A stretch of 64,000 bases of DNA from an uncultured Verrucomicrobiae bacterium. GTDB lineage: Bacteria > Verrucomicrobiota > Verrucomicrobiia > Limisphaerales > UBA11358. The stretch lies in NCBI GenBank assembly GCA_963714695.1, contig CAVQPQ010000008.1, forward strand, positions 106,831-170,830, given 5' to 3'. The first letter of the stretch is position 1. Every line of letters begins with the position of its first letter. The position numbers and the translations under genes are program-made. Positions 17,701 through 51,605 of this stretch are shown here, one piece after another. The notes beneath the pieces are model-generated. The model worked only from the letters and a program-made list of their open reading frames with translations. It was not told the DNA's origin and searched no databases.

Positions 17701-19866
17701 TTGAACTGTTTGAAGTGGCAAAAAAATCATTCATCTGAAGTTGCTGAGGTTCTCCGGGAATCATGGCATCGGGCCTGGCTTATGGGACTGCTGTTGGTGG
17801 GGGTTACGTTCCTGACCTATCTGCCGGTCTTCCAAGGACAATTCGTCTGGGACGACGACTCGTGGACCACAAAGATTGGCGAACTGTTGCGCAATGTTTC
17901 CGGTTTGCGCCTGATCTGGTGCCAAATCACCGCGCTGCAACAATATTATCCACTTACCGCCACGACCTTTTGGCTGGATTATCATTTGTGGGGTTTCTGG
18001 CCGCCGCCGTATCACGTGGAGAATGTCCTGTTGCACGCGCTGGCCGCGCTGCTGTTTTGGCGGTTGTTGGAGCGCCTCGGCGTGGCGGGGGCCTGGCTGG
18101 CGGCGGCGATCTTCGCGCTGCACCCGGTCATGGTTGAATCGGCGGGCTGGATTACCGAACGCAAGAATGTGCTTTCGCTGGTGTTCTACCTGGGGGCGCT
18201 GCTGGCGTACGGCCGGTTCAATGCGTTTTGGCGGGCAGACACTGCCGCCCCGGGAAAGTCGCCGCCGGGGCGTTGGGGCCATTACACGATGGCCTGGTTT
18301 TTGTTTCTGGGCGCCCTGTTGTCGAAGACCACCGCCTTTTCCCTGCCGGCGGTGGTGCTGCTGATTGGCTGGTGGAAAGGCGGACGGCTGCGGTGGCGGG
18401 AGGATGTGTTGCCAACCGTGCCGTTCTTTGCCTTGTCCTTCGGCATGTGTCTGGTAACCGCGTGGCTGGAAAAATACCATGTCATGGCACAGGGTCCGGA
18501 CTTTGCGCTGACTTTGCCGGAGCGTTGTCTGATTGCTGGCCGGGTGCCTTGGTTTTACCTCGGCCAACTGCTCTGGCCGGCGAGTCTTTGTTTTATTTAT
18601 CCGCGGTGGGCGCTCCACACCGGTTCGTGGCAACAATGGCTGTATCCGGTGACGGCCGTCGGCGCGCTTTTGGCGCTCTGGCTGGCCCGGAAGCGAATCG
18701 GGCGCGGCCCGGTTGCGGCGGTATTCTTTTTTGTCGGCACCTTGCTTCCCGTGCTGGGATTGATGAATACGTACAGCATGCGCTACTCGTTTGTTTGGGA
18801 CCACTGGGTTTATCTCTCCAGTCTCGGCCCCATCGCTCTGGGGTCGGCGCTGGTGGCGCGGGCGGCGAAACATTTTCGGATGCCGGTGGTGCTCTATGGG
18901 TTTGCCGCCATCTTGCTGCCAGTGCAGGCCATCCTGACGTGGCAACAATGCGGGATGTATGCCGATATGGAAACCCTCTGGCGGACGATCATCTCCAGAA
19001 ATCCCGATGCCTGGATGGCCCACGACAACCTTGGCAACCTCCTTTTCCAAAACGGGCGGGCGGACGAGGCGCTGGTCCATTTTCAAAAGACCCTGGCCCT
19101 CCAGCCCGATGACGTGCTGGCCCGCAATAATCTCGGCCTCATTCTTTGCCAAAAAGGGCAGGTGGACGAAGCGATCGCACAATTCCAGAAGGCTCTGGTC
19201 ACCCTGCCCGACGGGGCATTGATCCGCAACAACCTTGGCAAAGCTTTTCTCGCAAAGGGCCAGCGGCGCGAGGCGATGATTCAATTCCAAAAAGTTCTGG
19301 AAACTTATCCACGCGATCTCATGGCCCATTACAACCTCGGCACGGCTCTTTACCAAAATGGACAGGTGGATGAGGCGATTGTGCAATTCGGGCAAGCTCT
19401 GGAAACCCAACCTGACTTTGTGCGGGCCCACAATAAACTTGGGGTTGCTTTGCTTCAAAAGGGATTGGTGGACGAGGCGATTGCGCACTTCCAAAAGGCG
19501 TTGGAAATTCGCCCCGATTTTGCCGACGCCCGGGATAATCTGAACCACGCGGCGTGGCGGCTGGCCACCTCAACCGAGGCGTCCCTCCGCAACGGGCCCA
19601 GGGCGCTGGCGCTGGCCCGGCAACTGGTCCGGCTTTCCGGCGGGAATAATCCGGCCATGCTCGACACACTGGCCGCCGCCTGTGCCGAGACCGGACAATT
19701 TCCCGAGGCGGTTGACGCCGCCCAACAGGCCTTGGAGCTGGCCCGCGCCCAAAACAACACCGCCCTGGCGGAATCCTTGCGCCAGCAGATCAAGTTGTTC
19801 CAAGCAGGCTCCCCGTTCCGCAGCGCTCCCCTGACGAATGACGCTCCGGACTCAACTCCGCCTTGA
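17701..19866 (+). CDS. TMTC-like GT-C membrane protein with C-terminal TPRs
   Basis: FVWDD, HPVMVESAGWITERKNVLS, LLSKT, about 11 TMs, then TPRs; start could be ATG 17782. Confidence 0.88.
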   Translation: MNCLKWQKNHSSEVAEVLRESWHRAWLMGLLLVGVTFLTYLPVFQGQFVWDDDSWTTKIGELLRNVSGLRLIWCQITALQQYYPLTATTFWLDYHLWGFWPPPYHVENVLLHALAALLFWRLLERLGVAGAWLAAAIFALHPVMVESAGWITERKNVLSLVFYLGALLAYGRFNAFWRADTAAPGKSPPGRWGHYTMAWFLFLGALLSKTTAFSLPAVVLLIGWWKGGRLRWREDVLPTVPFFALSFGMCLVTAWLEKYHVMAQGPDFALTLPERCLIAGRVPWFYLGQLLWPASLCFIYPRWALHTGSWQQWLYPVTAVGALLALWLARKRIGRGPVAAVFFFVGTLLPVLGLMNTYSMRYSFVWDHWVYLSSLGPIALGSALVARAAKHFRMPVVLYGFAAILLPVQAILTWQQCGMYADMETLWRTIISRNPDAWMAHDNLGNLLFQNGRADEALVHFQKTLALQPDDVLARNNLGLILCQKGQVDEAIAQFQKALVTLPDGALIRNNLGKAFLAKGQRREAMIQFQKVLETYPRDLMAHYNLGTALYQNGQVDEAIVQFGQALETQPDFVRAHNKLGVALLQKGLVDEAIAHFQKALEIRPDFADARDNLNHAAWRLATSTEASLRNGPRALALARQLVRLSGGNNPAMLDTLAAACAETGQFPEAVDAAQQALELARAQNNTALAESLRQQIKLFQAGSPFRSAPLTNDAPDSTPP

Positions 19867-19995
19867 ACCGTTGTGCGCCCGGACGCAGCCCGACTTTGGC
19901 TTTGCGGCTTCGCACTTTCCGCTTTGGAGTTTGCGACGCGAACTTTAGACTGCACGCGATGTCGCAGATGCTCAAATCGTCCGGTTCCATGGCCG
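19456..19995 (+). repeat. 540-bp direct repeat, copy 1 (copy 2 at 21864-22403)
   Basis: Appears identical by eye at offset 2408; covers a TPR gene 3' end, a spacer and the first 12 codons of murJ. Confidence 0.92.
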
Positions 19996-22274
19996 AATTC
20001 CTCCGCTCTTTGCGAAATCAGGCCTGGCTTTTGAGTCTGCTGCTGGTGGCTGCCACGCTGCTGGCCTACCAGCCGGCCTGGTCCGGAAAACCGATTTGGG
20101 ATGATGATCAGCACATGACTCCGTCCCGGCTCCGTTCGATGACGGGTCTGTCGCGCATCTGGATGCAACCCGGCGCGACGCAGCAGTACTATCCATTGAC
20201 TTACAGTGCCTTTTGGATGGAGAACAAGCTGTGGGGCAATTCGACTCTGGGCTATCATCTGGTCAACATTTTGCTGCACGCTGCCTCGGCGTTGCTGGTG
20301 GTGAGAATTCTACAAAAGCTCGAAGTGCCCGGGGCCTGGCTGGCGGCGGGCATTTTCGCCTTGCATCCGGTGCAGGTGGAGTCGGTGGCGTGGATCTCAG
20401 AACTTAAGAATACGTTGTCGGGCGTTTTCTATCTGGGCTCGGCGCTGGCTTATCTAAAATTTGACCGGACCAGGAACCGGAAGTTGTTTGCCGCCGCTCT
20501 GGGATTGTTCATCCTGGGCTTGTTGTCCAAGACGGTCATCGCGACTTTGCCGGCAGCATGGCTGCTGATTTTCTGGTGGAAGCGGGGGCGGCTGTTCTGG
20601 AAACAGGATGTGCTGCCGCTGGCTCCGTTTTTTCTGACGGGGATTGGTACCGGACTGTTTACCGCCTGGTTCGAACAAAAGGTTCTTCATGCCGAAGGCC
20701 AAGCCTACGATTTCAGCTTCATTGAACGCATTCTCATAGCCGGACGCGCGCTGTGGTTTTATCTGGGCGGGCTCTGCTGGCCGGCAAAACTGGTCTTCAT
20801 CTACTCACGCTGGGATGTCAACCAAGGAGTGTGGTGGCAATACCTGTTCCCGGCCGCCCTGCTGCTGTTATTGGCTGCGTTGTGGTGGGTGCGGCAGTGG
20901 CGCGGACCGCTTGCAGGGCTGCTCTTTTTCGCCGGCACCCTGTTTCCGGCGCTGGGCTTTTTCAATTTATATCCGTTTCGCTATTCGTTCGTGGCTGATC
21001 ACTTTCAGTATTTGGCGAGCTTGGGGATTATTACGCTCGCGTCAGCCGGTGCCGCACTGCTGTTGGGCCGCTGGCGAGTTTGGGGACGAGCGGGTGGCAA
21101 CCTGATGTGCTTGACGCTTCTGGCGACGCTGGCGAGTTTGACCTGGCGGCAAAGCGGGATGTACGCTGATGCTGAAACACTCTGGCAGACGACCATCACC
21201 AGAAACCCTGATGCCTGGATGGCCCATGACAACCTCGGTATCGTTCTTTTACAACAAGGGCAGGTGGATAGAGCGATTTTACAGTTCCAAAAGGCCCTGG
21301 CCATCCAGCCCGATGATGTTGTGACTCGCAAAAACCTCGGCATTGCTCTGCTCCTAAAAGGACAGGCGCGCGAAGCGCTGGTTCAGTTCCAAAAGGTTCT
21401 GGCCATTCAGCCCGATGATGCCGTAGCCCGCAACAATCTCGGTTACATTTTTCTCCAAAAAGGACAGGCGCGCGAGGCGCTGGTTCAGTTCCAAAAGGTT
21501 CTGGAAAACGATCCCCGCGAACCAATGGCCAATTACAACCTCGGCAACTTTCTTCTCGCCAAAGGTCGGGTGGACGAGGCAATCGTTTATTTCCAAAAGT
21601 CCCTGGCTGTCCAGCCCGACTCCTTGCTGGCCCGCGACAACCTTGGCACAGCCCTGCTTCTAAAAGGACAGGAACTCGAGGCGCTGGTCCAATTCCAGAA
21701 GGCTTTGGAATACGACCCCGGCGATCCGACAGCCCACTACAACCTCGGCCTCGTGCTTTGCCAAAAGGGACGAATGGATGAAGGGATTGTGCAGTTCCAA
21801 AAGGCTCTGGAGACTCGGCCTGGCTTTGCCGAGGCTCATAATAATCTGGGCAATGCTCTTCTCCAAAAGGGATTGGTGGACGAGGCGATTGCGCACTTCC
21901 AAAAGGCGTTGGAAATTCGCCCCGATTTTGCCGACGCCCGGGATAATCTGAACCACGCGGCGTGGCGGCTGGCCACCTCAACCGAGGCGTCCCTCCGCAA
22001 CGGGCCCAGGGCGCTGGCGCTGGCCCGGCAACTGGTCCGGCTTTCCGGCGGGAATAATCCGGCCATGCTCGACACACTGGCCGCCGCCTGTGCCGAGACC
22101 GGACAATTTCCCGAGGCGGTTGACGCCGCCCAACAGGCCTTGGAGCTGGCCCGCGCCCAAAACAACACCGCCCTGGCGGAATCCTTGCGCCAGCAGATCA
22201 AGTTGTTCCAAGCAGGCTCCCCGTTCCGCAGCGCTCCCCTGACGAATGACGCTCCGGACTCAACTCCGCCTTGA
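19959..22274 (+). CDS. Second TMTC-like GT-C/TPR protein whose N-terminus is the murJ start
   Basis: PIWDDD, HPVQVESVAWISELKN, DHFQYLA, about 9 TPRs; starts MSQMLKSSGSMA like murJ. Confidence 0.88.
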   Translation: MSQMLKSSGSMAEFLRSLRNQAWLLSLLLVAATLLAYQPAWSGKPIWDDDQHMTPSRLRSMTGLSRIWMQPGATQQYYPLTYSAFWMENKLWGNSTLGYHLVNILLHAASALLVVRILQKLEVPGAWLAAGIFALHPVQVESVAWISELKNTLSGVFYLGSALAYLKFDRTRNRKLFAAALGLFILGLLSKTVIATLPAAWLLIFWWKRGRLFWKQDVLPLAPFFLTGIGTGLFTAWFEQKVLHAEGQAYDFSFIERILIAGRALWFYLGGLCWPAKLVFIYSRWDVNQGVWWQYLFPAALLLLLAALWWVRQWRGPLAGLLFFAGTLFPALGFFNLYPFRYSFVADHFQYLASLGIITLASAGAALLLGRWRVWGRAGGNLMCLTLLATLASLTWRQSGMYADAETLWQTTITRNPDAWMAHDNLGIVLLQQGQVDRAILQFQKALAIQPDDVVTRKNLGIALLLKGQAREALVQFQKVLAIQPDDAVARNNLGYIFLQKGQAREALVQFQKVLENDPREPMANYNLGNFLLAKGRVDEAIVYFQKSLAVQPDSLLARDNLGTALLLKGQELEALVQFQKALEYDPGDPTAHYNLGLVLCQKGRMDEGIVQFQKALETRPGFAEAHNNLGNALLQKGLVDEAIAHFQKALEIRPDFADARDNLNHAAWRLATSTEASLRNGPRALALARQLVRLSGGNNPAMLDTLAAACAETGQFPEAVDAAQQALELARAQNNTALAESLRQQIKLFQAGSPFRSAPLTNDAPDSTPP

Positions 22275-32473: not shown

Positions 32474-32881
32474 TTAACGCGCTAGGTCCGATTTTTTTGA
32501 TCCCCAGAAGGGTTTGACTTCCTCGGCGTGCTGTTTGACTTTGAGCTGGCCCAGGATGGAGTGCCAGGAGATGTAAATTTTATGCCATTGGCTTTCCAGG
32601 CTGCGGAGCGCGCCTTCGCCCATTTCGCTGAGGTAGCGCAACGACGGGGCGTTGCCGATGAGCGTGTGGATTTCTTCGCGCGTGGGCGAGGCAACTTCGA
32701 TGGAGGCGTAAATCAGTTCAATCTCCTGCACGATGATGCTTTTGATTTCGAGAAAATGACTTTCCTCCGCCTGGCCGAATTTTTTTCCGCGCGCGACGTT
32801 GATAAAATAATTGAACTGTTTCCAGCACTCAATGTGGGTTTCAATTTGAGTGACCAGTTGGTTGAGTTCTTTGGCGGTCAT
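32474..32881 (-). CDS. Helical hypothetical protein in the operon with the REC-DUF4388 gene
   Basis: Clean ORF with a 4-nt overlap with the upstream gene; amphipathic helices. Confidence 0.8.
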   Translation of the reverse strand: MTAKELNQLVTQIETHIECWKQFNYFINVARGKKFGQAEESHFLEIKSIIVQEIELIYASIEVASPTREEIHTLIGNAPSLRYLSEMGEGALRSLESQWHKIYISWHSILGQLKVKQHAEEVKPFWGSKKSDLAR

Positions 32882-33207
32882 AGGCGTGGTGGAGTTGGCG
32901 GCGGCGAAAAGGCGGTTTGCGGGAGCAGGAAAATAACGGCGCCGCCGCGCAATTCGCGGGCGGTGATATCGAGGCTGGCGAAATGGATACTGATTTCAGC
33001 CAGCGGCATTTGCGCCATGCGCGCCTCGCGGAAAAGGGACAGCACCTCCAGCCCGATCTCGCGCAGCATCGCCTTCGGATAGGCGGAGGAGACGGTGTAG
33101 GTCACGACGCGGCCATTGCGATCCACGGTGACACTGCCGGTCGGCAGTTGCTGAACGGTCGGGCGGGAATGGAAAAATCGCCTTATGAATTGTTTTAAGA
33201 TTCCCAT
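32878..33207 (-). CDS. Hypothetical protein, possibly roadblock/longin-like
   Basis: GSVTVDRNGRVV hairpin, helix, then three predicted strands. Confidence 0.7.
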   Translation of the reverse strand: MGILKQFIRRFFHSRPTVQQLPTGSVTVDRNGRVVTYTVSSAYPKAMLREIGLEVLSLFREARMAQMPLAEISIHFASLDITARELRGGAVIFLLPQTAFSPPPTPPRL

Positions 33208-34265
33208 GATGAAACCAGTTTTTTGCTTTTGTCCAACAACGGTCCGGCTGCAACCTCGGGCGGCCAGCCAACGAGAAAACACTTGTCTTCCTGTTTCAAA
33301 ACCAGCATCTGACGTTCTAAATTATGGGCGGCGACGTGCGAAAGCGGTCCGGCTTCGATCCGTTCGCCGAGGCGCCGGGTGGCTTCGGCGGCGCGCCGCG
33401 CCCATTTGGCGAGCGGCTCGGAAGGTTGCATGCCCATGGTTTCGGTTTCGCCCTGGCCTTCGGGCGGCACGGCGACAACAAAGTCCGCGCCTTCGCGCGT
33501 TAGCAGCGCAAGTTTCCAAATGGTTTTTCGGTGGGCGTTTTGCTCGACGGAACCGGGATCGGCGGAATCAGCGATTTCATCCATGGCCTGCGCGGATTCG
33601 AGCAGCAGGGCGTTGACGGGTTTGGTAATGGCGCGGTCACGCCCGGGTTCGGCGGGCAAATTTTCAAACGTGCCGGACTTCCACGCCAGAATCCTGCGGA
33701 AGGCCGCTTCGCCACACGTGCCTTCGGTTTCAGCGTCAATCAATTCACCATTTTGAATCCAAAGTTTGGCCACGAGTGATCCGCGAGTGATGCGCAACAC
33801 CGTGGAACTGCGCGAGAGGCATTCCATTTGGATGATGTCCATCAGGCTCTTGCTCTGGATGCCCCGGAAGCCGCCTTCCAGGTCGCGTCCCAAAAGCGAT
33901 TCGATGCAGTCCAGAAACATCTGCGAATTGGCCTGCATGTCGGTTTTGAGCCAGAACAAGTCCACGCCCAAGGCATAGGCGCGCGAGCGAAATTCCTCGT
34001 CTTCCAACCCGCTCAAAACGATCGTGCGCAATTCAGGAAACCGGCGGCGGACGATGGACAACACCTGCAGGCCGTCCATGCGCGGCATCTTCAAATCACA
34101 GACCAACAGCCGGAACGGCTCGGTTTCCATGAGCGCCAAGGCGCGCGCGCCTGAAGCGACAGTACGGATTTCGGGCTTGCTGGGAAGCAGCGCAAACATT
34201 TCGTTGCACAAGTTCAGCCAGTCCGCATCGTCATCCAAAACCAGAATTTTATGGCGCGTCTCCAT
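33195..34265 (-). CDS. Response regulator with REC, DUF4388 (PATAN-like) and possible roadblock-like C-terminal domain
   Basis: ILVLDDD, CDLKMPRMDG; GFRGIQSKSLMDIIQMECL...LWIQNGELIDA...ILAWKSGTF. Confidence 0.88.
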   Translation of the reverse strand: METRHKILVLDDDADWLNLCNEMFALLPSKPEIRTVASGARALALMETEPFRLLVCDLKMPRMDGLQVLSIVRRRFPELRTIVLSGLEDEEFRSRAYALGVDLFWLKTDMQANSQMFLDCIESLLGRDLEGGFRGIQSKSLMDIIQMECLSRSSTVLRITRGSLVAKLWIQNGELIDAETEGTCGEAAFRRILAWKSGTFENLPAEPGRDRAITKPVNALLLESAQAMDEIADSADPGSVEQNAHRKTIWKLALLTREGADFVVAVPPEGQGETETMGMQPSEPLAKWARRAAEATRRLGERIEAGPLSHVAAHNLERQMLVLKQEDKCFLVGWPPEVAAGPLLDKSKKLVSSWES

Positions 34266-34589
34266 GCCGATGTGATAATCGCTAACGCCACCGCCGTGCA
34301 ATTACAAGCTCGAAAAGTGCCAGCAGCGCAAATTATTTCAATGCGAGCAATCGGCGTTCCCAACGGAAACAAGGGGAAACAAGGCGGCAAAAGTCGTCTC
34401 ACGCCGGAACGTGAACCAACAAGGGACAAACCAGTCCAACGCTGAGACAAATTTTCAGCCCCTCCCACATTCGATTCGACATTCACACGGCGGAGTCGAA
34501 TGAAAGTCAAGGATGGCGCGCTTTCTGCTAAAAGACAGGGACCAAGCGCCGCCTGTCAATTGACAGGCAGCCAGTGATGTTTGCGTATC

Positions 34590-36313
34590 ATGTCAAAAAG
34601 CGTAAAAATAACGATTTCCGGGTTGCTCCGGGGTCTGCAGCGCCTCTTGGATAACAACGAAGCGACCGGGCCTGAAACACCGCGATATTCCACCTCCAAT
34701 GGCGCGCCGGTGACGGATGTGCCGGTTGTCGCTGCGCCACAGCCAATGGCGGCCCCAGCACCCCCCCCCCCACTGAGAACGCCAATGAACTGCAGTTGCC
34801 CCTGCAACCCATTATCGCCTCGATGTCGATGGAATTGCGCGCGAAAGTCATGCAAACGCCGCCTGCGGGGATGGTCATTGCCATACCGCTGGAAAAAGTC
34901 CTCACCCAACTCGCGCGCGGCGCTGTGAAAATCACTTTTGGGGAATTGCGACAGGCCGCTCCGGGTGTGTTTGTCAATTCCGGCGGCGAGCACGACCACA
35001 AGCCAGTAATGCTGCCGCTCAATGAAATTCTCACCCGCCTGAATCCCGCGTTGCTCGCCCGCCGGGTCACGCAAAAGCAGGTCGAATTGACCGACGAGAT
35101 TGGCAGCCCATTTGGCGCCCTCGGGCAAGGAATTACAATATCCACCACGCCGATGAAACCACCGGCGGCCCCACCCACACCGCCATTGCGAATGCCCACA
35201 CCGCCATTGCAAATGCCCGCACCGCCATCTCGAATGGTTACGCCAGTTGCTTCATCCGCCTGCATTCGACCAACCACGCCCACGATCAGGGTTGCCGCGC
35301 CGCAAAATAATGGTAATAATGGTAATGGTGCGCCGAAACCTGTCGTACCGGTTTCTCCGATTGCTCCGCCCATGCCGATGAACCAGGCGGAAATTTCCGC
35401 ACCGCTGGCCGGGCTTTCAGAAGATTGGCCGGAGGGATTACGACTTGAAATCGCGAAGTTAAATTTGTCAGACGCCCAGGTCTTGTTGCCGGCGAATTTG
35501 ATTGAGCCGGCCCTGAAGCGCGGACGTATGACAATCACGTGGGAAAACTTGCGGCCTTTGATCAAACCCACGCCGCCGCCGGCATCCATTCACGACGGCA
35601 CCAAACTGGAATTGCCGTTGAAAGTCATCGCGCCGTTATTCTTGACGCGGCAAACAGCGGCGCCCCGGCCACAACCAGCGGCTTTGCCGCCGGCTGACAT
35701 TCCCAATTTGTTTTTTAGCTTCCCCCAACCGCAGCCGGAAGCGCCAGTGAAAGCACCGGTGCCGGAAACGCCGGTAAAGGCACTGGAGCCGGACACATCG
35801 GTAAAAACGCAGTCGCCGGAGGTAAACCGTCCCGCCCTTAAACCGGTGGACGCCAAGCTGGCGGACTCCAACTACTATATTTGGGGCGAAACCAACGACG
35901 CGCCCCGGGTGGACGAAACCGAGTACAAGCGCCAGCAAAAGCCCGCGACAGATTTTACCAGCCGTCACGCGACACCGCAGGAAATTGTAACCCGTGCCAT
36001 GGCGTTGCCCGGCGTGGCCGGCGCCCTCGTGGCACTGCCGGATGGCTTGAAAGTGGCCAGCCAGATTCCGCCCGAGTTCAACGCAGACACGCTCGCAGCG
36101 TTTTTGCCTCAAATTTTTGACCGGGTAAGCCAGAGCACCAGGGAATTGAGAATGGGTGCGCTGAATAATTTCAATTTCACCGTTGGGAACGTGCCGTGGA
36201 AAATTTTTCGCGTGAACGCGGTTTTTTTCGCCGCGTTCGGTCGCGCGGGCGAACTGTTGCCGACGGTGCAACTGGCCGCGCTGGCCGCCGAACTCGACCG
36301 TAAAAAACAATAA
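34590..36313 (+). CDS. Pro-rich scaffold with a duplicated internal domain and C-terminal roadblock/LC7 domain, split at a C11 tract (34761-34771)
   Basis: LPGVAGALVALPDGLKVAS roadblock signature; the 34590 and 34796 ORFs join if the C run is 9 or 12. Confidence 0.75.
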
Positions 36314-36317
36314 ACGT

Positions 36318-36932
36318 ATGGCCCTCATCAACCAAGCTACCAAGGAATTGCAGGTTAAAATCGTCTATTACGGCCCAGCGATGGGCGGCAAAACGACCAA
36401 CCTCGTGCAAGTCCACGACCACGTACAAACCACTGCGGGCAACAAAGGCAAACTCGTGTCGCTGGCGACGAGTTCGGATCGCACGCTATTCTTCGACTTC
36501 CTGCCGATTGAGGCGATGACGATCAAGGGTTTCAAGACGAAGTTCCAGCTTTACACCGTGCCCGGACAGGTGATTTACAACACAACGCGGCAATTGGTTT
36601 TGCGCGGTGTGGACGGCATCGTGTTCGTCGCCGATTCGCAATACGAAAAGATGCCGGAAAACGTTGAGAGCTTTCAAAATCTCACGGACAACTTGAATTC
36701 ACTCAAGCTCAGCCTCGCGGATATTCCTTACGTGCTCCAATACAACAAGCGCGATTTGCCGGGCGTCGCGCCGGTGGAATACATGGAATATCTGCTGAAC
36801 AATCGCGAAGTGCAGGTGCCGTCGTTCAGTGCGACCGCACACCGGTGCGAGGGCGTGTTCGAAACGTTGAACATGATCACGCGCCTGCTGTTGCACAAAT
36901 TCATCAACCAAAGCGTCCCGCAATACGCATGA
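36318..36932 (+). CDS. mglA: MglA-family small Ras-like GTPase
   Basis: KIVYYGPAMGGKTTN (G1), DRTLFFDFLP (G2), LYTVPGQ (G3), NKRD (G4). Confidence 0.95.
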   Translation: MALINQATKELQVKIVYYGPAMGGKTTNLVQVHDHVQTTAGNKGKLVSLATSSDRTLFFDFLPIEAMTIKGFKTKFQLYTVPGQVIYNTTRQLVLRGVDGIVFVADSQYEKMPENVESFQNLTDNLNSLKLSLADIPYVLQYNKRDLPGVAPVEYMEYLLNNREVQVPSFSATAHRCEGVFETLNMITRLLLHKFINQSVPQYA

Positions 36933-36933
36933 C

Positions 36934-37416
36934 ATGGCCACCCTGCCTCAACTCATCGAGGACGATATTCGGCGGTGCGATGAAATTTTACACGCATTCA
37001 TCGCGAGCACGGATGCGACGGCCGCGCTGATCATTGACAAGGGCGGTTTCCTCATCACGCGCCAAGGCGACGCGCATGATTTCGATCTGACCACCATCGG
37101 CGCGCTGGCATCCGGCGCGTTTATGGCCAACCAGACCATCGCCAGTCTCGTTAATGAATCGAGTTTCGACAGCATTTACCAGCAGGGTGTAAATTTCAGC
37201 ATGTTTGTCATTAATATTGATGAACACTCACTGCTGGTAGTGATTTTCAAGTCCCACTCCGGTGTCGGGGTGGTGAAATATTATGCGGCGGGCGCGGTCA
37301 AGCGCATTGCACGCCAGCTTAAAATCGCCAAGGAGAGGGCGCCGGAAGCGGGGCTTGATCTTTCCGTCCTCAACGTCGCCGAAACCGGACCATTCTTTCG
37401 GAAAAAGCAACCGTGA
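36934..37416 (+). CDS. mglB: MglB-like roadblock/LC7 protein
   Basis: ALIIDKGG, IGALASGAFMANQTIASLVNE, FDSIYQQG; directly after mglA. Confidence 0.88.
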   Translation: MATLPQLIEDDIRRCDEILHAFIASTDATAALIIDKGGFLITRQGDAHDFDLTTIGALASGAFMANQTIASLVNESSFDSIYQQGVNFSMFVINIDEHSLLVVIFKSHSGVGVVKYYAAGAVKRIARQLKIAKERAPEAGLDLSVLNVAETGPFFRKKQP

Positions 37417-37504: not shown

Positions 37505-37741
37505 TCAAGGTAACCGCCCGTGGCTCCCGTCGCAAAACGCGCCATTTTTCGAATGCTTGCAGCCACACCAAGCGAGGGTTCTGGCCTCGGCAATTTCAAC
37601 TTTCAGCGGCCCGAAGCCGGTGCCCTTGTGCGAGCCGTCGCAAAACGGCTGGCCTTTTGATTTTCCGCACGCGCACCACCAATACGTGCCGGGTTCAACC
37701 TTTGTAACGAACGGCGAATGTTGAGCAATCGTTGGTTCCAT
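37505..37741 (-). CDS. CDGSH iron-sulfur domain protein (two motifs)
   Basis: WCACGKSKGQPFCDGSH and WCGCKHSKNGAFCDGSH. Confidence 0.92.
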   Translation of the reverse strand: MEPTIAQHSPFVTKVEPGTYWWCACGKSKGQPFCDGSHKGTGFGPLKVEIAEARTLAWCGCKHSKNGAFCDGSHGRLP

Positions 37742-37751
37742 ATACATTTAT

Positions 37752-39635: not shown

Positions 39636-39825
39636 AAATTCCGTTGGAACGGAAGGAAAGTCTAGCAACCCAAACAAATGGGGTCAATTTGCAATTTTAA
39701 TTGGAACAACGACCGTGAAACACGCTCCACCGATCGTCTGATAAGAAACTTTTCCGTGACCTGACCCCGAAAAACTGGACGTGACAAAAGGAGAGTTCTG
39801 CTGCGAAAAGAAAGGCAGCAGAACT

Positions 39826-40092
39826 ATGAGAAAAAGCCAATACAGCGAAGAACAGATCATCGGGATACTCCGGGAAGCCGAAGGCGACACGCCGGTCAAG
39901 GCGGTTTGCGCCAAGCACAACATCAGCGACGCGACGTTTTACAAGTGGCGCGCCAAGTATGGCGGCATGGACGTGAACGAGGCGCGGCGCTTGCGAGCGT
40001 TGGCGGATGAGAACGGGCGGTTGAAGCGAGCGGTGGCGGACCTGACCGTGCAGGTGCAGATATTGAAAGAGGTGAACTCAAAAAAGTGGTAA
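39826..40092 (+). CDS. IS3 transposase OrfA
   Basis: YSEEQIIGILRE, ISDATFYKWRAKYGG, ENGRLKR. Confidence 0.93.
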   Translation: MRKSQYSEEQIIGILREAEGDTPVKAVCAKHNISDATFYKWRAKYGGMDVNEARRLRALADENGRLKRAVADLTVQVQILKEVNSKKW

Positions 40093-41000
40093 GCCCGTCG
40101 GCCAAGCGCCGGGCGGTGAAGCTGGTAATCGAAACTGGGATTGGCACGACGGCAGAAGCCTGTCGAGCCCTTGGGTTGGCCCGGTCGAGTTATTACTGCA
40201 ACAGCACTGCGAGTCTGGAAAGTCGTCAGATGCACGGACACATTGTTCAATTGAGCCAGGATCATCCGCGCTATGGTTACCGACGGGTGACAGCCCTGTT
40301 GCGCCGGGAAGGCCAGGAGATCAATGCCAAGCGCGTGCAACGGGTGCGGAGAAAAGAAGGGCTGCAAGTGAGCCGGAAGCAGCGAAAGTTGCGGCGGTTG
40401 GGCCTTTCGACGGCCGAGCGGCAACGGGCGACACAGGCCAACCACGTCTGGAGCTGGGACTTTGTGGAAGACCAGACTGAAAATGGAACGCGTTTCCGCG
40501 TGCTGACCTTGATCGACGAGCATACTCGGGAATGCCTGACAGTGCATGTGGACTGGTCCCTCCGGGCGGTGGATGTCATCACCGTGGTCGAGGCGGCGAT
40601 GGCGCGTTACGGTGTACCGAAGCATCTGCGCAGTGACAACGGGCCGGAGTTCATCGCCTATGCGATCCAGGACTGGCTCAAAAGCAAGAACGTGAAGACG
40701 ATTTACATTACCCCCGGTTCGCCGTGGGAGAACGCTTACATTGAGAGTTTCCATGACAAACTACGGGACGAATGTTTGAACCGGGAAATCTTTGGCAGCC
40801 TGTGGGAGGCGCGGGTTGTCATTGAGCAGTGGCGCCTCTATTATAACGCGGAGCGGCCGCACAGTTCGTTGGGGTATCAAACCCCGGCGGAGTTTGCTGG
40901 CCGCGCCATCAGCCGTTCGGTGCTCCGGTCGGGCTACGCCCTCCCTCCGTCCCGAACGGCTGAAACAAAAATCAAACCGATGGCAGAACTCTACTTATGA
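40086..41000 (+). CDS. IS3 transposase OrfB (DDE)
   Basis: YGYRR, WSWDF, RSDNGPEF, PWENAYIESF, RPHSSLGY. Confidence 0.95.
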   Translation: MVSPSAKRRAVKLVIETGIGTTAEACRALGLARSSYYCNSTASLESRQMHGHIVQLSQDHPRYGYRRVTALLRREGQEINAKRVQRVRRKEGLQVSRKQRKLRRLGLSTAERQRATQANHVWSWDFVEDQTENGTRFRVLTLIDEHTRECLTVHVDWSLRAVDVITVVEAAMARYGVPKHLRSDNGPEFIAYAIQDWLKSKNVKTIYITPGSPWENAYIESFHDKLRDECLNREIFGSLWEARVVIEQWRLYYNAERPHSSLGYQTPAEFAGRAISRSVLRSGYALPPSRTAETKIKPMAELYL

Positions 41001-44240: not shown

Positions 44241-46835
44241 CTAGGGTACGGCGGAAACAGGCTTTCCGACCGTCTCATGATACGGTTGGTGGGCGCGATA
44301 CAAAGCCAGCAGCTTCCGGTTCTGCTCAAGCAAAGCCGGTTCGCCCGCCGCCGTGGCCAGCGCGCAAGCTTGCTGCGCCGCCACTATCGCATCGTCATAT
44401 CGTCCCGCCTCGGCATAGGCGGCCGCCAACGTGCCGATGAAAGGCGTCACGCCATAGTGTGTCAGTTTACAGGCCTGTTCGGCATATTTGACGGCTTGAA
44501 CCCCGTCCCGAAGGGGTGCGTCCGAACACGTCGCCAGCAGCCAGGCCAGATTGTTCAGGACCCCCGGGGCGTCGGGCTTGATTTGCAGCGCCTGTTGAAA
44601 CTGGGCAATCGCTGCGTCCACGCGGCCCTTTTGAAGCAGGGCATTCCCCAAGTTGTAGTGGGCTTTGGCGTTACCGGATTTGATTTGCAGCGCCTGTTGG
44701 TACTGGGTGATCGCTTCGTCCACATCACCCTTTTTGAGCAGCGCGTTGCCAAGATTATAGTGGGCTTCCGCGTAGTCGGGTTTGATTTGCAGCACCTTTT
44801 GGTATTGGGTGATCGCTTCGTCCATTCTGCCATTTTGGAGCAGCACGTAGCCGAGGTTATAGCAGGCTCCCGCGTAGTCGGGTTTGATTTGCAGCGCCTG
44901 TTGGTATTGGATGATCGCTTCGTCCACCCGGCCATTTTGGACCAATGCGCCGCCCAAGTTGTTGTGGGCTTCCGCGTAGTCGGGTTTGATTTGCAGCGCC
45001 TGTTGGTATTGGATGATCGCTTCGTCCACCCGGCCCTTTTTGAGCAGCGCGTTGCCGAGATTGTACCAAGCTTCCGCATAGTCGGGCTTGATTTGCAGCG
45101 CCTGTTGGTACTGGGTAATCGCTTCGTCCACCCTGCCCTTTTTGAGCAGCGCGTTGCCGAGGTTGTTGTAGGCCGCAGCATAATCCGGTTTGATTTGCAG
45201 CGCCTGTTGGCCATGAGTGATCGCTTCATCCACCTTGCCCTGTTGAAGCAGTGCGTCGCACAGGTTGTTGTGGGCCGCCGCGTAGTCAGGTTTGATTTGC
45301 AGCGCCATTTGGTACTGGGCGACCGCTTCATCCAATCTTTCCTTTTGGGGAAAAGCGTTGCCGAGTTCATCATGGGCGATATAATTGTCTGAGGTACAGG
45401 CGAGCGTGTGAGTCCAGAGTGTTTCACTGTTCCGCCAATAGGGCGTCTGCGCCCGCGCGCAAAACATCAAGGCCGCCAGTATGCCTGTGGCCAGGCCGCC
45501 CAGCACCACGCGGCGGTAACGCCTGCCGGCGCACCCCTCCGCCGCCGCCCAGGTCAGCCACACATACAACCCAATCTGCGGCAAATACGTGTAGCGATCC
45601 GCACGCGCCTGAGCCCCCACCTGAACAATCCCAATCACCGGCACCAGCATAATGAGATACCACAGCCACCCGGTCAAAAAATACGGGCGGCGACGACACA
45701 GGATAAAAACACCCGCGGAAATGCCGGCCAACAGTACCAGTGACAGCACCACTGCCAAAAACCCAATGTTCCTGGCCGTAAACGGGTATAATACCGCCAG
45801 ACCCGTCGGCCAGAACATCTGGCCCAAATAGGCCACATAGGAAATCACGGCATTACCCAGACGCACGGGCAGGGAAAACCTCTCGAATGACTGGAGTGCT
45901 TCGTGTTGGGCAACAATCGTGACCACACACGATACGACGGCCAGTCCGAACAAGGGCAGCTTTTCATAGAGTAAATTGTTGAGAGTTGAGAGTTGAGGAA
46001 CAGGAATTCGGAATCTTGTCACCTGCCACTCGCCACTCGTCATTCGTCCCAATGGCCAATAGTCCAGCAATAGCAGCACGAACGGCACCGTCACCAGCAT
46101 CGGCTTGCACAGCAAACCCAACGCAAAAAACACCAAAACCAGATAGTAGCTGAGGGTCGAGGGTCGAGGGTCGAGAGCCAAACTGCTGGTTCCGGCACTC
46201 GACCCTCGACGCTCGACGCTCGACCGTCCTTGCCCGTAGCGCGTGTACGCCCACAGCGTCAGCATGAAAAACAGCCCGCTGAGCACATCCTTGCGTTCCG
46301 CCACCCACGCTACCGATTCCACCCGCAACGGATGTATCGCAAACACCCCCGCCACAAACGCACTGCGCCACAAAAACCCCGTCATCCGCCGCAGCACCAG
46401 AAACAGGAGGATCACCGAGGCGGTGTGCAACAGGACGTTCGTCAAGTGATGCCCGCCGGCATTCAACCCATACAACTGGCAGTCCAGCATGTGGGTCAGC
46501 ATCGTCAGCGGATGCCAGTTGGCACACACGCGATGAGTAAAGGCCCACTCGACTCCTTTCAGATTCAGCCCGCGGGTCACCGCGGGATTATCGTACACAT
46601 ACAGGTTGTCGTCAAAATTGACAAACTCATGACGCAGCGTCTGCCCGAAAACGGCAAACGTGATCGCCGCCAGAACTAGACAGACCCCGGGAACCCGCCA
46701 GCGGTCATTCAAACCCGCCGCAGGTCTTTCGGGCTTCAGACCGTGGGAGTCTGCCGCTGCCGGCCTTTCCCCGGCAGGCGATGGAAACGGGCTCGATGCC
46801 GCTACTGCGGCTGGTTGCTTGGATTCTCCGCTCAT
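44241..46835 (-). CDS. Third TMTC-like GT-C/TPR protein
   Basis: FVNFDDNLYV, NWHPLT, HPLRVESVAWVAERKDVLS, ADRYTYLPQIG, 8 TPRs. Confidence 0.9.
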   Translation of the reverse strand: MSGESKQPAAVAASSPFPSPAGERPAAADSHGLKPERPAAGLNDRWRVPGVCLVLAAITFAVFGQTLRHEFVNFDDNLYVYDNPAVTRGLNLKGVEWAFTHRVCANWHPLTMLTHMLDCQLYGLNAGGHHLTNVLLHTASVILLFLVLRRMTGFLWRSAFVAGVFAIHPLRVESVAWVAERKDVLSGLFFMLTLWAYTRYGQGRSSVERRGSSAGTSSLALDPRPSTLSYYLVLVFFALGLLCKPMLVTVPFVLLLLDYWPLGRMTSGEWQVTRFRIPVPQLSTLNNLLYEKLPLFGLAVVSCVVTIVAQHEALQSFERFSLPVRLGNAVISYVAYLGQMFWPTGLAVLYPFTARNIGFLAVVLSLVLLAGISAGVFILCRRRPYFLTGWLWYLIMLVPVIGIVQVGAQARADRYTYLPQIGLYVWLTWAAAEGCAGRRYRRVVLGGLATGILAALMFCARAQTPYWRNSETLWTHTLACTSDNYIAHDELGNAFPQKERLDEAVAQYQMALQIKPDYAAAHNNLCDALLQQGKVDEAITHGQQALQIKPDYAAAYNNLGNALLKKGRVDEAITQYQQALQIKPDYAEAWYNLGNALLKKGRVDEAIIQYQQALQIKPDYAEAHNNLGGALVQNGRVDEAIIQYQQALQIKPDYAGACYNLGYVLLQNGRMDEAITQYQKVLQIKPDYAEAHYNLGNALLKKGDVDEAITQYQQALQIKSGNAKAHYNLGNALLQKGRVDAAIAQFQQALQIKPDAPGVLNNLAWLLATCSDAPLRDGVQAVKYAEQACKLTHYGVTPFIGTLAAAYAEAGRYDDAIVAAQQACALATAAGEPALLEQNRKLLALYRAHQPYHETVGKPVSAVP
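44560..45330 (-). repeat. Near-identical 102-bp tandem TPR-coding repeats
   Basis: Unit NLGNALLKKGRVDEAITQYQQALQIKPDYAEA repeated about 8 times with high DNA identity. Confidence 0.9.
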
Positions 46836-47208
46836 GAAAAGAACCAAGGAAGTCCCGCACCCTGGCCGTTCTTTCCAGCGGATATGAAATCATGTAAACA
46901 ATTGGTCATCAGGACCACGGCTGTGCTTTCAACCTGGTGCCGGCCATTTTATCGCCACCAAACTGCTTGCAAAGCCAAAATGTTCAATGGTTAATCTAAC
47001 GCTTTATCTTTCGGAACTGCGTTGCTTGGTATTAATCTTGCAAATGGATTACGGATTACTTTGGCCAACTATAAAGCAATTCGCAAATTGCAAAGCCAAG
47101 CAACATGCTGAAGAATTTGTGAAAACGAATCAATTCGTTTTGCCGCCAAACAGCATAGCCAAGGATTTGTAATTTGACATTTGGCAATCGAAATTAGAAA
47201 CTTTGATT

Positions 47209-47313
47209 ATGCCTGCCTACGAATACGAGTTAGGTGATGGCGAGCGCAAGGTCCATGGCGGGAAGTTCACCCTGCGCCGTTCGTCGGGCGTTTTATCATC
47301 GGTGCCGTCATGA
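47209..47313 (+). pseudogene. Degenerate 5' copy of the FmdB-like gene, coupled to the next ORF
   Basis: MPAYEYELGDGERKVHGGKFTLRRS vs MPLYEYELCEGNCKVCGGKFTLRRP at 48427; its TGA overlaps ATG 47310. Confidence 0.8.
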
Positions 47314-48329
47314 TTACCCATCTTGCCGTATTGGCGTTCATCGGTCTAACCTTCTGGTGGTTGAGCGGGTATGACGCAAAAGTGACGGGCGGGAATAAAA
47401 GGCAGGGCCTCATCCGCCGAGCCCTGCGCTGCGGCATGACCTTGCTTCTAGTGGGAATGTTATTGGGGTTGCCCGGGGCGCTACAGGTCATGCCAATATT
47501 GCTCTTGATTGGTGGAGGGCTGGTCTTGATATGGTGCAGTTGTGTGGCTGAATTGTTCGCGCGTTGGTTTCATCATCTGGTTGATCCTGCGGATGAGCAG
47601 GAGATTGATCCCAAACAAGGGTTGCGCGATCTGGACATGATTGCCAGCCTGATTAAAAACGGCCGGCGGGAGGAGGCTGTTCAATTGAGCCAGAGGCTCA
47701 GAGAATCCGGAGAAATCAGCGTGCTGGTCCTGGAAACCAGGTTGGAACATCTTGGCCTCAAACAAGAAAGCGTTCAAAAGCCCAAGCCGCTGACCGAAGC
47801 TTATCATCGGCGCATGGAGGGGCGGTTCCAGGAAGCCGAATCCATCCTAAAATCGTTGCTGGCCAAAGACCCGCGCAATGTGGATGCGGCCATGATGCTG
47901 ATGCGGATTTACACACAGGATTTGCGCCACCCGCACAAAGCCCGGGAAATCCTTCGGGCGCTTGAAAAACAAACGCACATTTCACCTGCCCACGTGGAAT
48001 TTGCCCGCCGTTCCATTGCGGAATGGAGCCAGGGGAAACCCAAGCCGGAAAAGGTTGTCGCTCCGCCGGAATCCATTGATGAACTTCTGACCCAGGGCTA
48101 TTTCGGCACCGCCATTGAAGTTCTGGAACAAAAAATCGAGGAACAGCCCCGGGATTTGGATTTAAGGCTCAAACTGGCCGAGGTTTACGGCCGGCATTGT
48201 GGTGATGTTGACCGGGCCGGGAAAATTGTGCGGCAGATTGAAACCAGTCCCGGCTTTACCCCGGAACAGATACAAAACGCCCGAACCAAACTCGAAGAAT
48301 GGCGGAAAACCGGACCCCATGGTCAGTAA
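47310..48329 (+). CDS. Membrane-anchored TPR protein
   Basis: Three N-terminal TMs followed by TPR-like helical repeats. Confidence 0.8.
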   Translation: MITHLAVLAFIGLTFWWLSGYDAKVTGGNKRQGLIRRALRCGMTLLLVGMLLGLPGALQVMPILLLIGGGLVLIWCSCVAELFARWFHHLVDPADEQEIDPKQGLRDLDMIASLIKNGRREEAVQLSQRLRESGEISVLVLETRLEHLGLKQESVQKPKPLTEAYHRRMEGRFQEAESILKSLLAKDPRNVDAAMMLMRIYTQDLRHPHKAREILRALEKQTHISPAHVEFARRSIAEWSQGKPKPEKVVAPPESIDELLTQGYFGTAIEVLEQKIEEQPRDLDLRLKLAEVYGRHCGDVDRAGKIVRQIETSPGFTPEQIQNARTKLEEWRKTGPHGQ

Positions 48330-49862: not shown

Positions 49863-51605
49863 TCAGTGCGCCGAGGTAATCAGGAGCACCTGCTCCAACG
49901 TCGAAATGCCTTCGCGCGCGCGGTCAAGACCCACCATGCGGAGCGTGTGCATTCCCTGGCTGACGGCCACCTTGCCCAGTTCGCGCGTGTTGGCGCGGGC
50001 GATGACGAGTTTGCGGATTTGGTCGGTGATGGTCATGGCCTCAATGATGGCCATGCGGCCGGCGTAGCCGGAATTTTTACATCGGTCGCAGCCACGTCCG
50101 CGGTAAAGTTGCACCCCGCTGAAAGTGGCGGGATCAATGCCAAGGTCTTCAAACATTTTTGGCGGATAGGATATCGGCTCCTTGCAGTGCGAGCAGATGC
50201 GGCGCATGAGACGTTGCGCACACGAAAGAATCACTGAGGACGAGATTAAAAATGGCGCAATGCCCATGTCATCGAGGCGCGCAATGGCGCCGGGCGCGTC
50301 GTTGCAATGCATGGTACTCAAGACCTGATGGCCGGTGAGCGCGGCTTCAATGGCAATTTCAGCCGTCTCGGTGTCGCGAATTTCGCCAATCATGATGATG
50401 TCCGGATCCTGACGCAGGATGGAACGCAGCGCGTTGGCAAACGTGAGTCCGATGTCTTTTTTGGTCGGCACCTGGTTGATGCCGGGAATTTGAAATTCCA
50501 CCGGGTCTTCGACCGTAACAATGTTGTAAATCGGATTGTTCAGTTCGTTGAGCGCGGAGTACAGGGTCGTGGTTTTCCCCGAACCCGTTGGGCCGGTGAC
50601 CAGGATTAATCCGTGCGGCGCATCAATGGCGAATTTGAATTGCTTGAGGGTTTCGGCGTCCAATCCGAGCTTGTCTATGCTCGCGGACAAGTTGGTTTTG
50701 TCGAGCACGCGCAGAACGATTTTCTCCCCGTGAACGGTGGGCAGCACGGACACGCGCAAGTCGAAATCCTTGCCGCTAACCTTGACGCGCATGCGGCCGT
50801 CCTGGGGCAGGCGGCGTTCGGCGATGTCCAGGCTGCTCATGATTTTGAAGCGCGAGGCCAGTGCCAGTTGCATTTGCTTGGGCGGCGGCGTGGCATCCAG
50901 GAGCACGCCGTCAACCCGGTAGCGCAAGCGCATGCCTTTTTCGAAAGGCTCCAGGTGAATGTCACTGGCTCGGTCCTTGATGGCCTGGACAATGATGAGA
51001 TTGGCAAGTTTGATGACCGGCGCTTCTCCGCTGGAGGCAGCAAGTTGATCAATGTTGACCTCTTCGACCCCCTCGTTGACGGATTCGACGGAGTCGGCTT
51101 CAGCTTCGGCTTCGCTTTGCTTTTTTGCGTCCTGAATGATGTCTTCCATTGAGCCGCCGCTTTTGGCGGCATCAAAGGCGTTCAACTTGTCAACGATGGC
51201 TTTCTCGGACGCAATGAGCGGGGTCACTTCGAGTTTGGTGATGCGCTTGACATCATCGAGGGCGAGAACGTTCAGCGGGTCGGCCATCGCGAGGAACAAC
51301 CGGTTTTCCAGCCGGGAAACTGGAATGACCTTGTAATTGTTCGTCGTGTCGCGCGGCAGCAATTCGATCACTTCCGGCAGAATGCTCACGCGCGTCAGGT
51401 TGATGGGCGAGACATTCAGCACGCGTCCCATGGAAACCGCCAGGTCCTGTTCGCTGACGTAGGACTTGTCAATAATGAGCTTGATCAAACGCGCCCCCTC
51501 CTTTTTTTGCTGTTCCAGCAGCTCCACAATCTGCCCCTCCGTCAGCAGGCCGTCCTCAACGAGTGCGTCCGCGATGCGTTCTCCAAATGATTTGACTTTG
51601 GCCAT
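49863..51605 (-). CDS. pilB: PilB/GspE-type assembly ATPase with N-terminal MshEN domain
   Basis: ASDIHLEP, LDIAERRLPQDG, GPTGSGKTT, LRQDPDIIMIGEIRD, CSHC..CDRC. Confidence 0.9.
   Translation of the reverse strand: MAKVKSFGERIADALVEDGLLTEGQIVELLEQQKKEGARLIKLIIDKSYVSEQDLAVSMGRVLNVSPINLTRVSILPEVIELLPRDTTNNYKVIPVSRLENRLFLAMADPLNVLALDDVKRITKLEVTPLIASEKAIVDKLNAFDAAKSGGSMEDIIQDAKKQSEAEAEADSVESVNEGVEEVNIDQLAASSGEAPVIKLANLIIVQAIKDRASDIHLEPFEKGMRLRYRVDGVLLDATPPPKQMQLALASRFKIMSSLDIAERRLPQDGRMRVKVSGKDFDLRVSVLPTVHGEKIVLRVLDKTNLSASIDKLGLDAETLKQFKFAIDAPHGLILVTGPTGSGKTTTLYSALNELNNPIYNIVTVEDPVEFQIPGINQVPTKKDIGLTFANALRSILRQDPDIIMIGEIRDTETAEIAIEAALTGHQVLSTMHCNDAPGAIARLDDMGIAPFLISSSVILSCAQRLMRRICSHCKEPISYPPKMFEDLGIDPATFSGVQLYRGRGCDRCKNSGYAGRMAIIEAMTITDQIRKLVIARANTRELGKVAVSQGMHTLRMVGLDRAREGISTLEQVLLITSAH

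Follow-up and report, generated by a model that had tools for sequence, protein, structure and literature searches.

The closest described relatives of the system reported here are the MglA-MglB modules of Myxococcus xanthus and Thermus, in which a small Ras-like GTPase (MglA) is paired with a roadblock-fold partner (MglB). How MglA is activated and positioned outside Myxococcus is an open question, and the role of RomR-RomX is itself under revision: in the available part of PMC13408092, RomRX is described as an effector rather than a guanine nucleotide exchange factor, and RomR as a protein that sequesters MglB. The accessible text of PMC4316618 reports PATAN proteins encoded in the vicinity of some MglA genes, cites Makarova et al. 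2006 for the same neighbourhood of MglB homologues, and assigns the MglA of Verrucomicrobia to 'Group 5'. PATAN proteins near mglAB are also discussed in the preprint 10.1101/2021.06.11.447907, which in its available part describes binding of a PATAN domain to PilB1 and PilC in Synechocystis. Here, we analysed a locus of this kind in a window of 64,000 nucleotides (nt) from an uncultured Verrucomicrobiae bacterium of the Limisphaerales (assembly GCA_963714695.1, contig CAVQPQ010000008.1, positions 106,831 to 170,830); all coordinates below are those of the window unless a locus name is given. The locus holds six genes in two divergent arms, and we propose, with a probability of about 0.55, that it is a clade-specific elaboration of the MglA/MglB switch in Limisphaerales-type Verrucomicrobiota, in which a platform built from the left-arm proteins tunes MglA, with the pilus as the most likely output. 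The genes of the two arms are as follows.

32474-32881 (-): h135, 135 aa, four-helix bundle in the model, without known family
32878-33207 (-): p109, 109 aa, minimal roadblock fold in the model
33195-34265 (-): REC-PATAN (DUF4388) regulator, 356 aa, assigned by Pfam and, for its C-terminus, by AlphaFold2 (AF2)
34266-34589 (no strand): divergent intergenic region between the regulator ATG and the scaffold ATG, presumably with both promoters
34590-36313 (+): scaffold gene, about 574 aa if read in one frame; split here into the open reading frames (ORFs) 34590-34928 and 34796-36313
36318-36932 (+): mglA, 204 aa, Ras-like GTPase of the MglA family
36934-37416 (+): mglB, 160 aa, roadblock-fold partner of MglA

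All six ORFs were present. A reading made earlier from the DNA letters, hereafter the sequence-only reading, had described two divergent, tightly coupled three-gene operons, and the ORF coordinates uphold this: in the left arm, the overlaps are 13 nt between the regulator stop and the p109 start and 4 nt between the p109 stop and the h135 start, and in the right arm the spacers are 4 nt between scaffold and mglA and 1 nt between mglA and mglB. Throughout the source genome, MglA, DUF4388, and Robl_LC7 each gave a single match, all three inside this locus. The sequence-only reading had also knew of no characterisation in this lineage. This stands for the lineage and the architecture and does not extend to the theme, since the neighbourhood of PATAN and mglAB is already in print in the accessible parts of PMC4316618 and 10.1101/2021.06.11.447907. 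What is new here, as far as those texts go, is the architecture, that is, a REC-PATAN-roadblock fusion together with p109 and h135; what was known is the presence of PATAN genes near mglAB. Our literature search for the PATAN domain combined with a roadblock returned only the M. xanthus SopA study and its preprint.

The locus encodes four roadblock domains: MglB, the C-terminus of the scaffold, the C-terminus of the regulator, and p109. Several roadblock-like proteins had been expected from the sequence-only reading, and the four domains, recognized by Pfam, profile, or predicted fold, agree with it. The regulator is composed of three domains.

aa 7-108, nt 33942-34247 (-): REC domain (Pfam)
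aa 139-230, nt 33576-33851 (-): PATAN/DUF4388 domain (Pfam)
aa ~240-355, nt 33201-33548 (-): C-terminal roadblock domain (AF2 and Foldseek)

In Pfam, it matched Response_reg (8.2e-17, 61.8 bits versus 30.2) and DUF4388 (5e-15, 56.1 bits versus 25). Receiver residues D11, D12, D57, and K107 were invariant in 17 sequences, and position 85 is S or T in 16 of these; the regulator therefore combines DUF4388 with a receiver holding phospho-acceptor residues, as PatA-type regulators do. Its C-terminal part had no Pfam match. When the last 160 residues of the window's regulator were modelled by AF2 from an 18-row alignment, they adopted the order alpha-beta-beta-alpha-beta-beta-beta-alpha with a predicted local distance difference test score (pLDDT) of 77.3. 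Foldseek then returned 63 matches in the PDB at E<=1e-3, and all chains among the matches listed belonged to the roadblock family, with LAMTOR2 (1.7e-5, template modelling (TM) score 0.73), an Asgard roadblock (2.5e-5), M. xanthus MglB (6hjm_D, 4.4e-5, TM 0.73), and a Streptomyces roadblock domain among them. The small alpha/beta domain noted at this C-terminus by the sequence-only reading is thus, by its predicted fold, a full roadblock domain.

No Pfam or NCBIfam family was found for p109 at E<=0.1, and the best PDB match of its profile was the roadblock 7yh1_D, with an E-value of 0.084 only. We folded p109 and h135 on a natural fusion homologue, P0157 (239 aa, 83 alignment rows), to the two halves of which the window proteins are 43% and 51% identical, respectively. 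The p109 half was predicted as beta-beta-alpha-beta-beta-beta without flanking helices, with a pLDDT of 92-98 over the core. Its first Foldseek match was dynein roadblock (3l7h_B, 6.6e-4, probability 1.00), followed by LAMTOR, Asgard roadblock, and MglB chains, and VIA gave Z-scores of 11.3 (root-mean-square deviation 3.3, 81 residues aligned) and 9.7 with dynein roadblock and 9.4 with an Asgard roadblock. In a language-model comparison, the neighbours of p109 from other families were LAMTOR4 (0.89) and LAMTOR5 (0.88), which we take as leads only. From the AF2 model of the homologue, Foldseek, and VIA, the 109-aa protein, previously put down as possibly roadblock- or longin-like, is modelled as a minimal roadblock.

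The 135-aa protein had been called helical, which the model of the homologue bears out: the h135 half of P0157 consists of helices (pLDDT ~80-87), and h135 is modelled as a generic four-helix bundle. It likewise had no Pfam or NCBIfam family at E<=0.1. Its alignment (A1, 15 sequences) contains invariant ECWKQF, PSLR, and W..H motifs, and its C-terminal tail is hydrophobic, then basic (FWGSKK). Two attempts to place it in a known family were abandoned, VIA giving generic bundles only (Z<=8.9, below the meaningful level for bundles) and sequence searches against solved structures giving weak AAR2 matches only (E 0.042). Short terminal peptides of the same hydrophobic-then-basic kind were observed on four locus proteins in the window and in relatives: MG(F/L)L..F at the p109 N-terminus, MF.FLK..L or ..GLLRGLL at the scaffold N-terminus, FWG.KK or SLFGRKK at the h135 C-terminus, and (L/F)FRKK at the MglB C-terminus. 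A common docking motif is one possible role for these peptides, and membrane anchoring is another.

That the left arm is one unit is suggested by natural fusions. A p109 profile search over 1.84 billion representatives found 211 relatives at E<=0.001, and fusions were seen among the nine of these that were retrieved. P0223 (486 aa) joins REC, PATAN, roadblock, and p109 in a single chain, and P0262, a fragment 63% identical to P0223, shows the same join of regulator and p109. In P0157, P0178, P0238, and P0260 (235-241 aa), p109 and h135 form a single chain; the cluster of P0238 comprises 16 proteins from several sources, among them an NCBI record of a Verrucomicrobiota metagenome-assembled genome (MAG). 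Since the regulator is fused to p109, p109 is fused to h135, and the genes overlap, the three left-arm proteins likely assemble. Gene and protein sequences thus provide good indirect evidence that regulator, p109, and h135 form one complex.

We then searched the loci around mglA in genus and order relatives with the six proteins (tblastn). In 8/9 genus loci and 7/11 order loci, the six genes were arranged in the same divergent way. One locus is cut by a contig end, the left arm is not adjacent in G214 (genus) and in G237 and G239 (order), and G233 has a distant MglA with no mglB at the locus. Genome-wide, MglA was detected in 33/40 relatives and h135 in 34/40; G235 proved in addition to have an mglA cut by a contig end. 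The sequence-only reading had made its case hinge on the left operon occurring together with mglAB, and the two do go together: both arms are present in 33 of the 40 relatives and neither in 5, with 2 discordant genomes (MglA only in G233, left arm only in G222). All six genes were also found in each of the 62 related loci with at least 5.6 kb of flank. An h135 profile scan of 185,579 species genomes gave 515 relatives. Nearly all of the best 80 of these 515 are labelled as Verrucomicrobiota, Verrucomicrobiia, subdivision 3, or Limisphaerales MAGs, with few other labels, and they come from soil, bog, peat, or lakes; with 75-96% identity, the best 80 loci are too closely related to count as independent. 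Outside the order, MglA was detected in 11/200 sampled phylum genomes, and h135 in 1 of those 11 (G004) and in 0 of the 189 others. mglAB is thus scattered more widely, and the left arm is an addition to it that is specific to this clade. Elsewhere in the Verrucomicrobiota, a PAS-PATAN gene lies directly upstream of mglA (L067), and a REC-PATAN gene without roadblock lies ~6 kb from mglA (L064). In single genomes, we observed h135 split into two frames (G217; L059, 4110-4503) and an internal stop in p109 (G221; L057, 11692-12015), which are either assembly errors or decay.

The GTPase and its partner were readily recognized. By phmmer against the PDB, MglA matched solved M. xanthus MglA (6hjh_A) at 1.8e-61 over residues 1-193 and Thermus MglA (3t12_A) at 1.7e-59. 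It has a GPAMGGKT P-loop, R55/T56 in DRTLFFDF, TVPGQ84, and NKRD143-146, and the key residues of these motifs are invariant across 30 relatives, in line with the intact G1-G4 ascribed to mglA by the sequence-only reading; the counterparts of R55/T56 in M. xanthus MglA are presumably R53/T54. The identification of 36934-37416 as mglB was also confirmed, its product scoring 32.4 bits against the Pfam cut-off of 23 for Robl_LC7 and matching solved MglB (1j3w_A, 1.6e-12; 6h5b_B, 2.1e-11). It stayed below the cut-off of the NCBIfam MglB model NF052242 (60.8 bits versus 200, E 1.6e-16), a model that, judged by its name (GTPaseActivMglBThm), seems Thermus-specific. The mglB product is a roadblock protein, by family the partner of MglA and a predicted GTPase-activating protein (GAP), and it ends in a conserved (L/F)F(R/K)KK tail.

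The scaffold is made of a conserved N-terminal peptide, proline-rich linkers, two conserved regions without known family, and a C-terminal roadblock (nt ~35981-36310). The latter scored 17.1 bits with Pfam Robl_LC7, under the cut-off, and a 21-sequence profile of the C-terminus matched solved Robl_LC7 proteins at 3.5e-9 (an Asgard roadblock), 4.3e-7, and 6.8e-6; public records name the scaffold homologues Roadblock/LC7/MglB family. The two conserved regions aligned with each other by BLASTP at an E-value of 0.11, which does not establish an internal repeat. In relatives, the scaffold has ~70 additional residues at its start and opens with a conserved M-S/A-N-S-V-K...GLLRGLL N-terminus. In the window, this N-terminal peptide lies in a separate frame, from an ATG at 34590 and open to 34928, which points to a 1-nt frameshift in the assembly. 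Indeed, an independent soil-metagenome contig that matches 34751-36368 with one mismatch carries an additional C after position 34760, by which the two frames become one ORF, 34590-36313, and a public protein, P0287 (574 aa), has exactly the joined reading. From two other runs, the contigs stop in this C-rich stretch, at 34729, 34760, or 34761. Sequence comparison thus places the gene proper at 34590-36313, with a 1-nt frameshift near 34760 that is either an assembly error in the C-rich stretch or a strain variant. Of the proline-rich scaffold with a terminal roadblock described by the sequence-only reading, the roadblock was retained (3.5e-9 by profile) and the start was not: 34796 was given, the gene starts at 34590, and it is frameshifted in this assembly.

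For the output of the locus, we looked at the genes next to it. Of the 64 related loci holding mglB, 15 have a PilT/PilU-family ATPase gene immediately after mglB and in the same orientation, and the same neighbour was found in G205, G208, and G220; G208 and G220 sit in both locus sets, so these counts overlap. This neighbour matched TIGR01420 with 336.8 bits (cut-off 319.1).

L115, L131, L133, L134, L138, L145-L148, L151, L153, L158, L160, L165, L168 (mglB strand): mglB-adjacent PilT/PilU gene, among L092-L171
L061:9133-10329 (+), also L028 and L025: mglB-adjacent PilT/PilU gene

Four distant loci of the phylum (L064-L067) likewise have PilT-like ATPase matches a few kb or less from mglA. The source genome has 5 PilT-family matches over the cut-off, two PilM matches, and a PilB-like ATPase gene. 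The last carries an MshEN domain, lies in the window at 49863-51605 (-), 12.4 kb beyond mglB, and scores 652 bits with TIGR02538, slightly below the cut-off. Several large tetratricopeptide repeat proteins are encoded 7-15 kb from the module, at 44241-46847 (-), 47310-48329 (+), and 17701-22274 (+), with an IS3-type transposase at 39781-41000 in between.

Next to mglB is a small gene that recurs in relatives.

37505-37747 (-): CDGSH iron-sulfur protein gene, 80 aa, convergent with mglB, candidate accessory part (zf-CDGSH, 2.8e-18)

A CDGSH gene was found within 600 bp of mglB in 21/64 related loci, and MglB and CDGSH are fused in frame (Robl_LC7 + zf-CDGSH in Pfam) in L044:4118-4828 (-) and L051:8620-9414 (+), from genomes of different families. 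This adjacency and the fusion hint at a redox or iron-sulfur input to MglB, a combination for which our literature search found no paper. In G222 (L172, C3:354000-372000), a CDGSH gene directly abuts the regulator gene.

As to expression, consensus promoter and terminator scans of the region gave counts not above those of shuffled sequence. Metatranscriptome contigs of one study, with zero differences from the window, cover parts of both arms; such RNA-library contigs tell of presence in libraries and are not proof of transcription. RNA-library contigs of a related strain (runs X13 and X14, one study) end at 34313 with adapter. This position is 48 nt upstream of the regulator ATG on its strand, a weak hint of a 5' end that contigs cannot prove.

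Altogether, we favour the following scheme. The regulator roadblock would pair with p109, as in MglB dimers and in the eukaryotic Ragulator, and h135 would bind this pair. The resulting platform would dock on MglA, MglB, or the scaffold roadblock and thereby change the location of MglA or the duration of its GTP-bound state. Phosphorylation of D57 by a kinase encoded elsewhere would set the activity of the platform, and the output would most likely be the type IV pilus motor, which could be reached through MglA-GTP and through the PATAN domain.

Several observations weigh against this scheme. Profile-profile comparison (hhalign) of p109 with MglB was not significant (E 0.062, probability 0.9%), nor was that of MglB with the regulator (E 0.13) or the scaffold C-terminus (E 0.41), or that of p109 with the regulator (E 0.25); because of this, the roadblock assignment of p109 and the regulator is one of predicted folds, and for p109 the protein modelled was a homologue with 43% identity to that of the window. 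The model of the p109-h135 fusion had a predicted TM score (pTM) of 0.49, so the arrangement of the two halves is not predicted with confidence. A complex prediction of the regulator roadblock, p109, and h135 with MglA scored 0.00 against a mark of 0.32, without controls, and weighs neither way. The locus encodes no kinase, no CheA dimerisation domain was found in the source genome (93.5% complete), and the scaffold is frameshifted in this assembly. Concerning the output, the window has no pilT beside mglB, and the source genome's best match to the mglB-adjacent paralogue is only 49% identical, with no orthologue found; moreover, PilT-family genes occur in 41/41 relatives, including 5 without the module, so their presence or absence gives no contrast for a pilus link. 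Finally, the left arm of G222 (93% complete) lies on a 925-kb contig that lacks scaffold-mglA-mglB, no MglA turned up in the whole of that genome, and in G237 and G214 the two arms lie apart, so that the left arm may function independently of MglA.

These last genomes are also what speaks for the two arms being separate neighbouring systems, with the left arm a PATAN regulator acting on pilus ATPases and mglAB and the scaffold independent of it, as does the finding that PATAN alone is enough for output in Synechocystis, reported in the available part of 10.1101/2021.06.11.447907. We nevertheless consider such independence quite improbable, given that both arms occur in 33/40 relatives with 2 discordant and all six genes in 62/62 loci with enough flank, that PAS-PATAN or REC-PATAN genes are also neighbours of mglA in other Verrucomicrobiota, and that PATAN genes near mglAB recur (PMC4316618, accessible text). 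By analogy with MglC and RomR, the left-arm complex could instead not sit on MglA at all and be an adaptor that binds MglB or the scaffold by roadblock contacts, sequestering or positioning the GAP until phosphorylation releases it. MglC of M. xanthus is a roadblock paralogue of MglB and binds MglB (PMC7949163 and PMC4719450, in their available parts), and the four roadblock domains of the locus allow several pairings; the profile comparisons of p109 or the regulator with MglB, not being significant, count against such an adaptor, which we regard as possible and somewhat unlikely.

The pilus may also be the wrong output, with the module controlling another polar or membrane process, such as secretion, division, or development, and the pilT neighbours being incidental. 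The window has no pilus gene adjacent to the module, 49/64 related loci have no pilT-like neighbour, and MglA-family GTPases serve several processes according to the accessible text of PMC4316618. However, the PilT/PilU-family gene that follows mglB on the same strand in 15/64 loci, the PilT-like matches near mglA in L064-L067, and the link of PATAN to the pilus motor (10.1101/2021.06.11.447907, available part) make this very unlikely in our view. A more ambitious form of the platform scheme would be a Ragulator-like heteromeric assembly, made of a full roadblock on the receiver-PATAN protein, a minimal roadblock, and a helical subunit, that sits on MglA or MglB at the pilus base under control of phosphorylation, with a CDGSH redox or iron-sulfur input to MglB. 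We hold this form to be unlikely. If it were true, control of a small GTPase by hetero-oligomeric roadblock assemblies would extend beyond eukaryotes and Asgard archaea.

With the tuning of MglA by a left-arm platform as the preferred reading, the locus offers a compact set of candidate regulators tied together by natural fusions, with a plausible pilT-like output and a possible iron-sulfur input. Its parts, all of them small soluble proteins, lend themselves to binding and GTPase assays. Metagenomes of soil and peat commonly contain the clade.

How does the locus compare with known systems? Ragulator (LAMTOR1-5) also combines full and truncated roadblock subunits with a helical subunit for a small GTPase; the resemblance is one of fold and parts list only. 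The regulator C-domain best matches LAMTOR2, and p109 matches LAMTOR4/5-type chains. The two systems have no detectable sequence relationship, MglA lacks a roadblock C-terminal domain, and h135 is modelled as a compact four-helix bundle, whereas LAMTOR1 is an extended wrap. With the M. xanthus/Thermus MglA-MglB module, the locus shares an MglA that aligns over residues 1-193 with M. xanthus MglA and keeps the intrinsic arginine and glutamine, and a roadblock protein, MglB, encoded directly after it. The locus differs from the M. xanthus module in its partners, which are a minimal roadblock and a four-helix bundle, and in the proline-rich scaffold with roadblock that precedes mglA. A Frz-like CheA, as in M. 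xanthus, was not found in the source genome (93.5% complete). The order REC-PATAN-roadblock of the regulator also differs from that of RomR, a receiver followed by a proline-rich and a C-terminal region. Extra roadblock and receiver proteins that accompany the switch are a trait shared with MglC and RomR of M. xanthus (PMC7949163, PMC4719450, and PMC13408092, in their available parts). PatA-type regulators, as described in the accessible part of 10.1101/2021.06.11.447907, have PATAN then REC, whereas here REC is followed by PATAN and then roadblock, so the PatA order does not apply. The available texts on the PATAN-mglAB neighbourhood do not mention the roadblock fusion, p109, or h135. It is with these PATAN-mglAB systems (Makarova et al. 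2006; Wuichet and Sogaard-Andersen 2015, as far as their accessible text goes) that the locus shares a PATAN domain and a receiver encoded beside mglAB.

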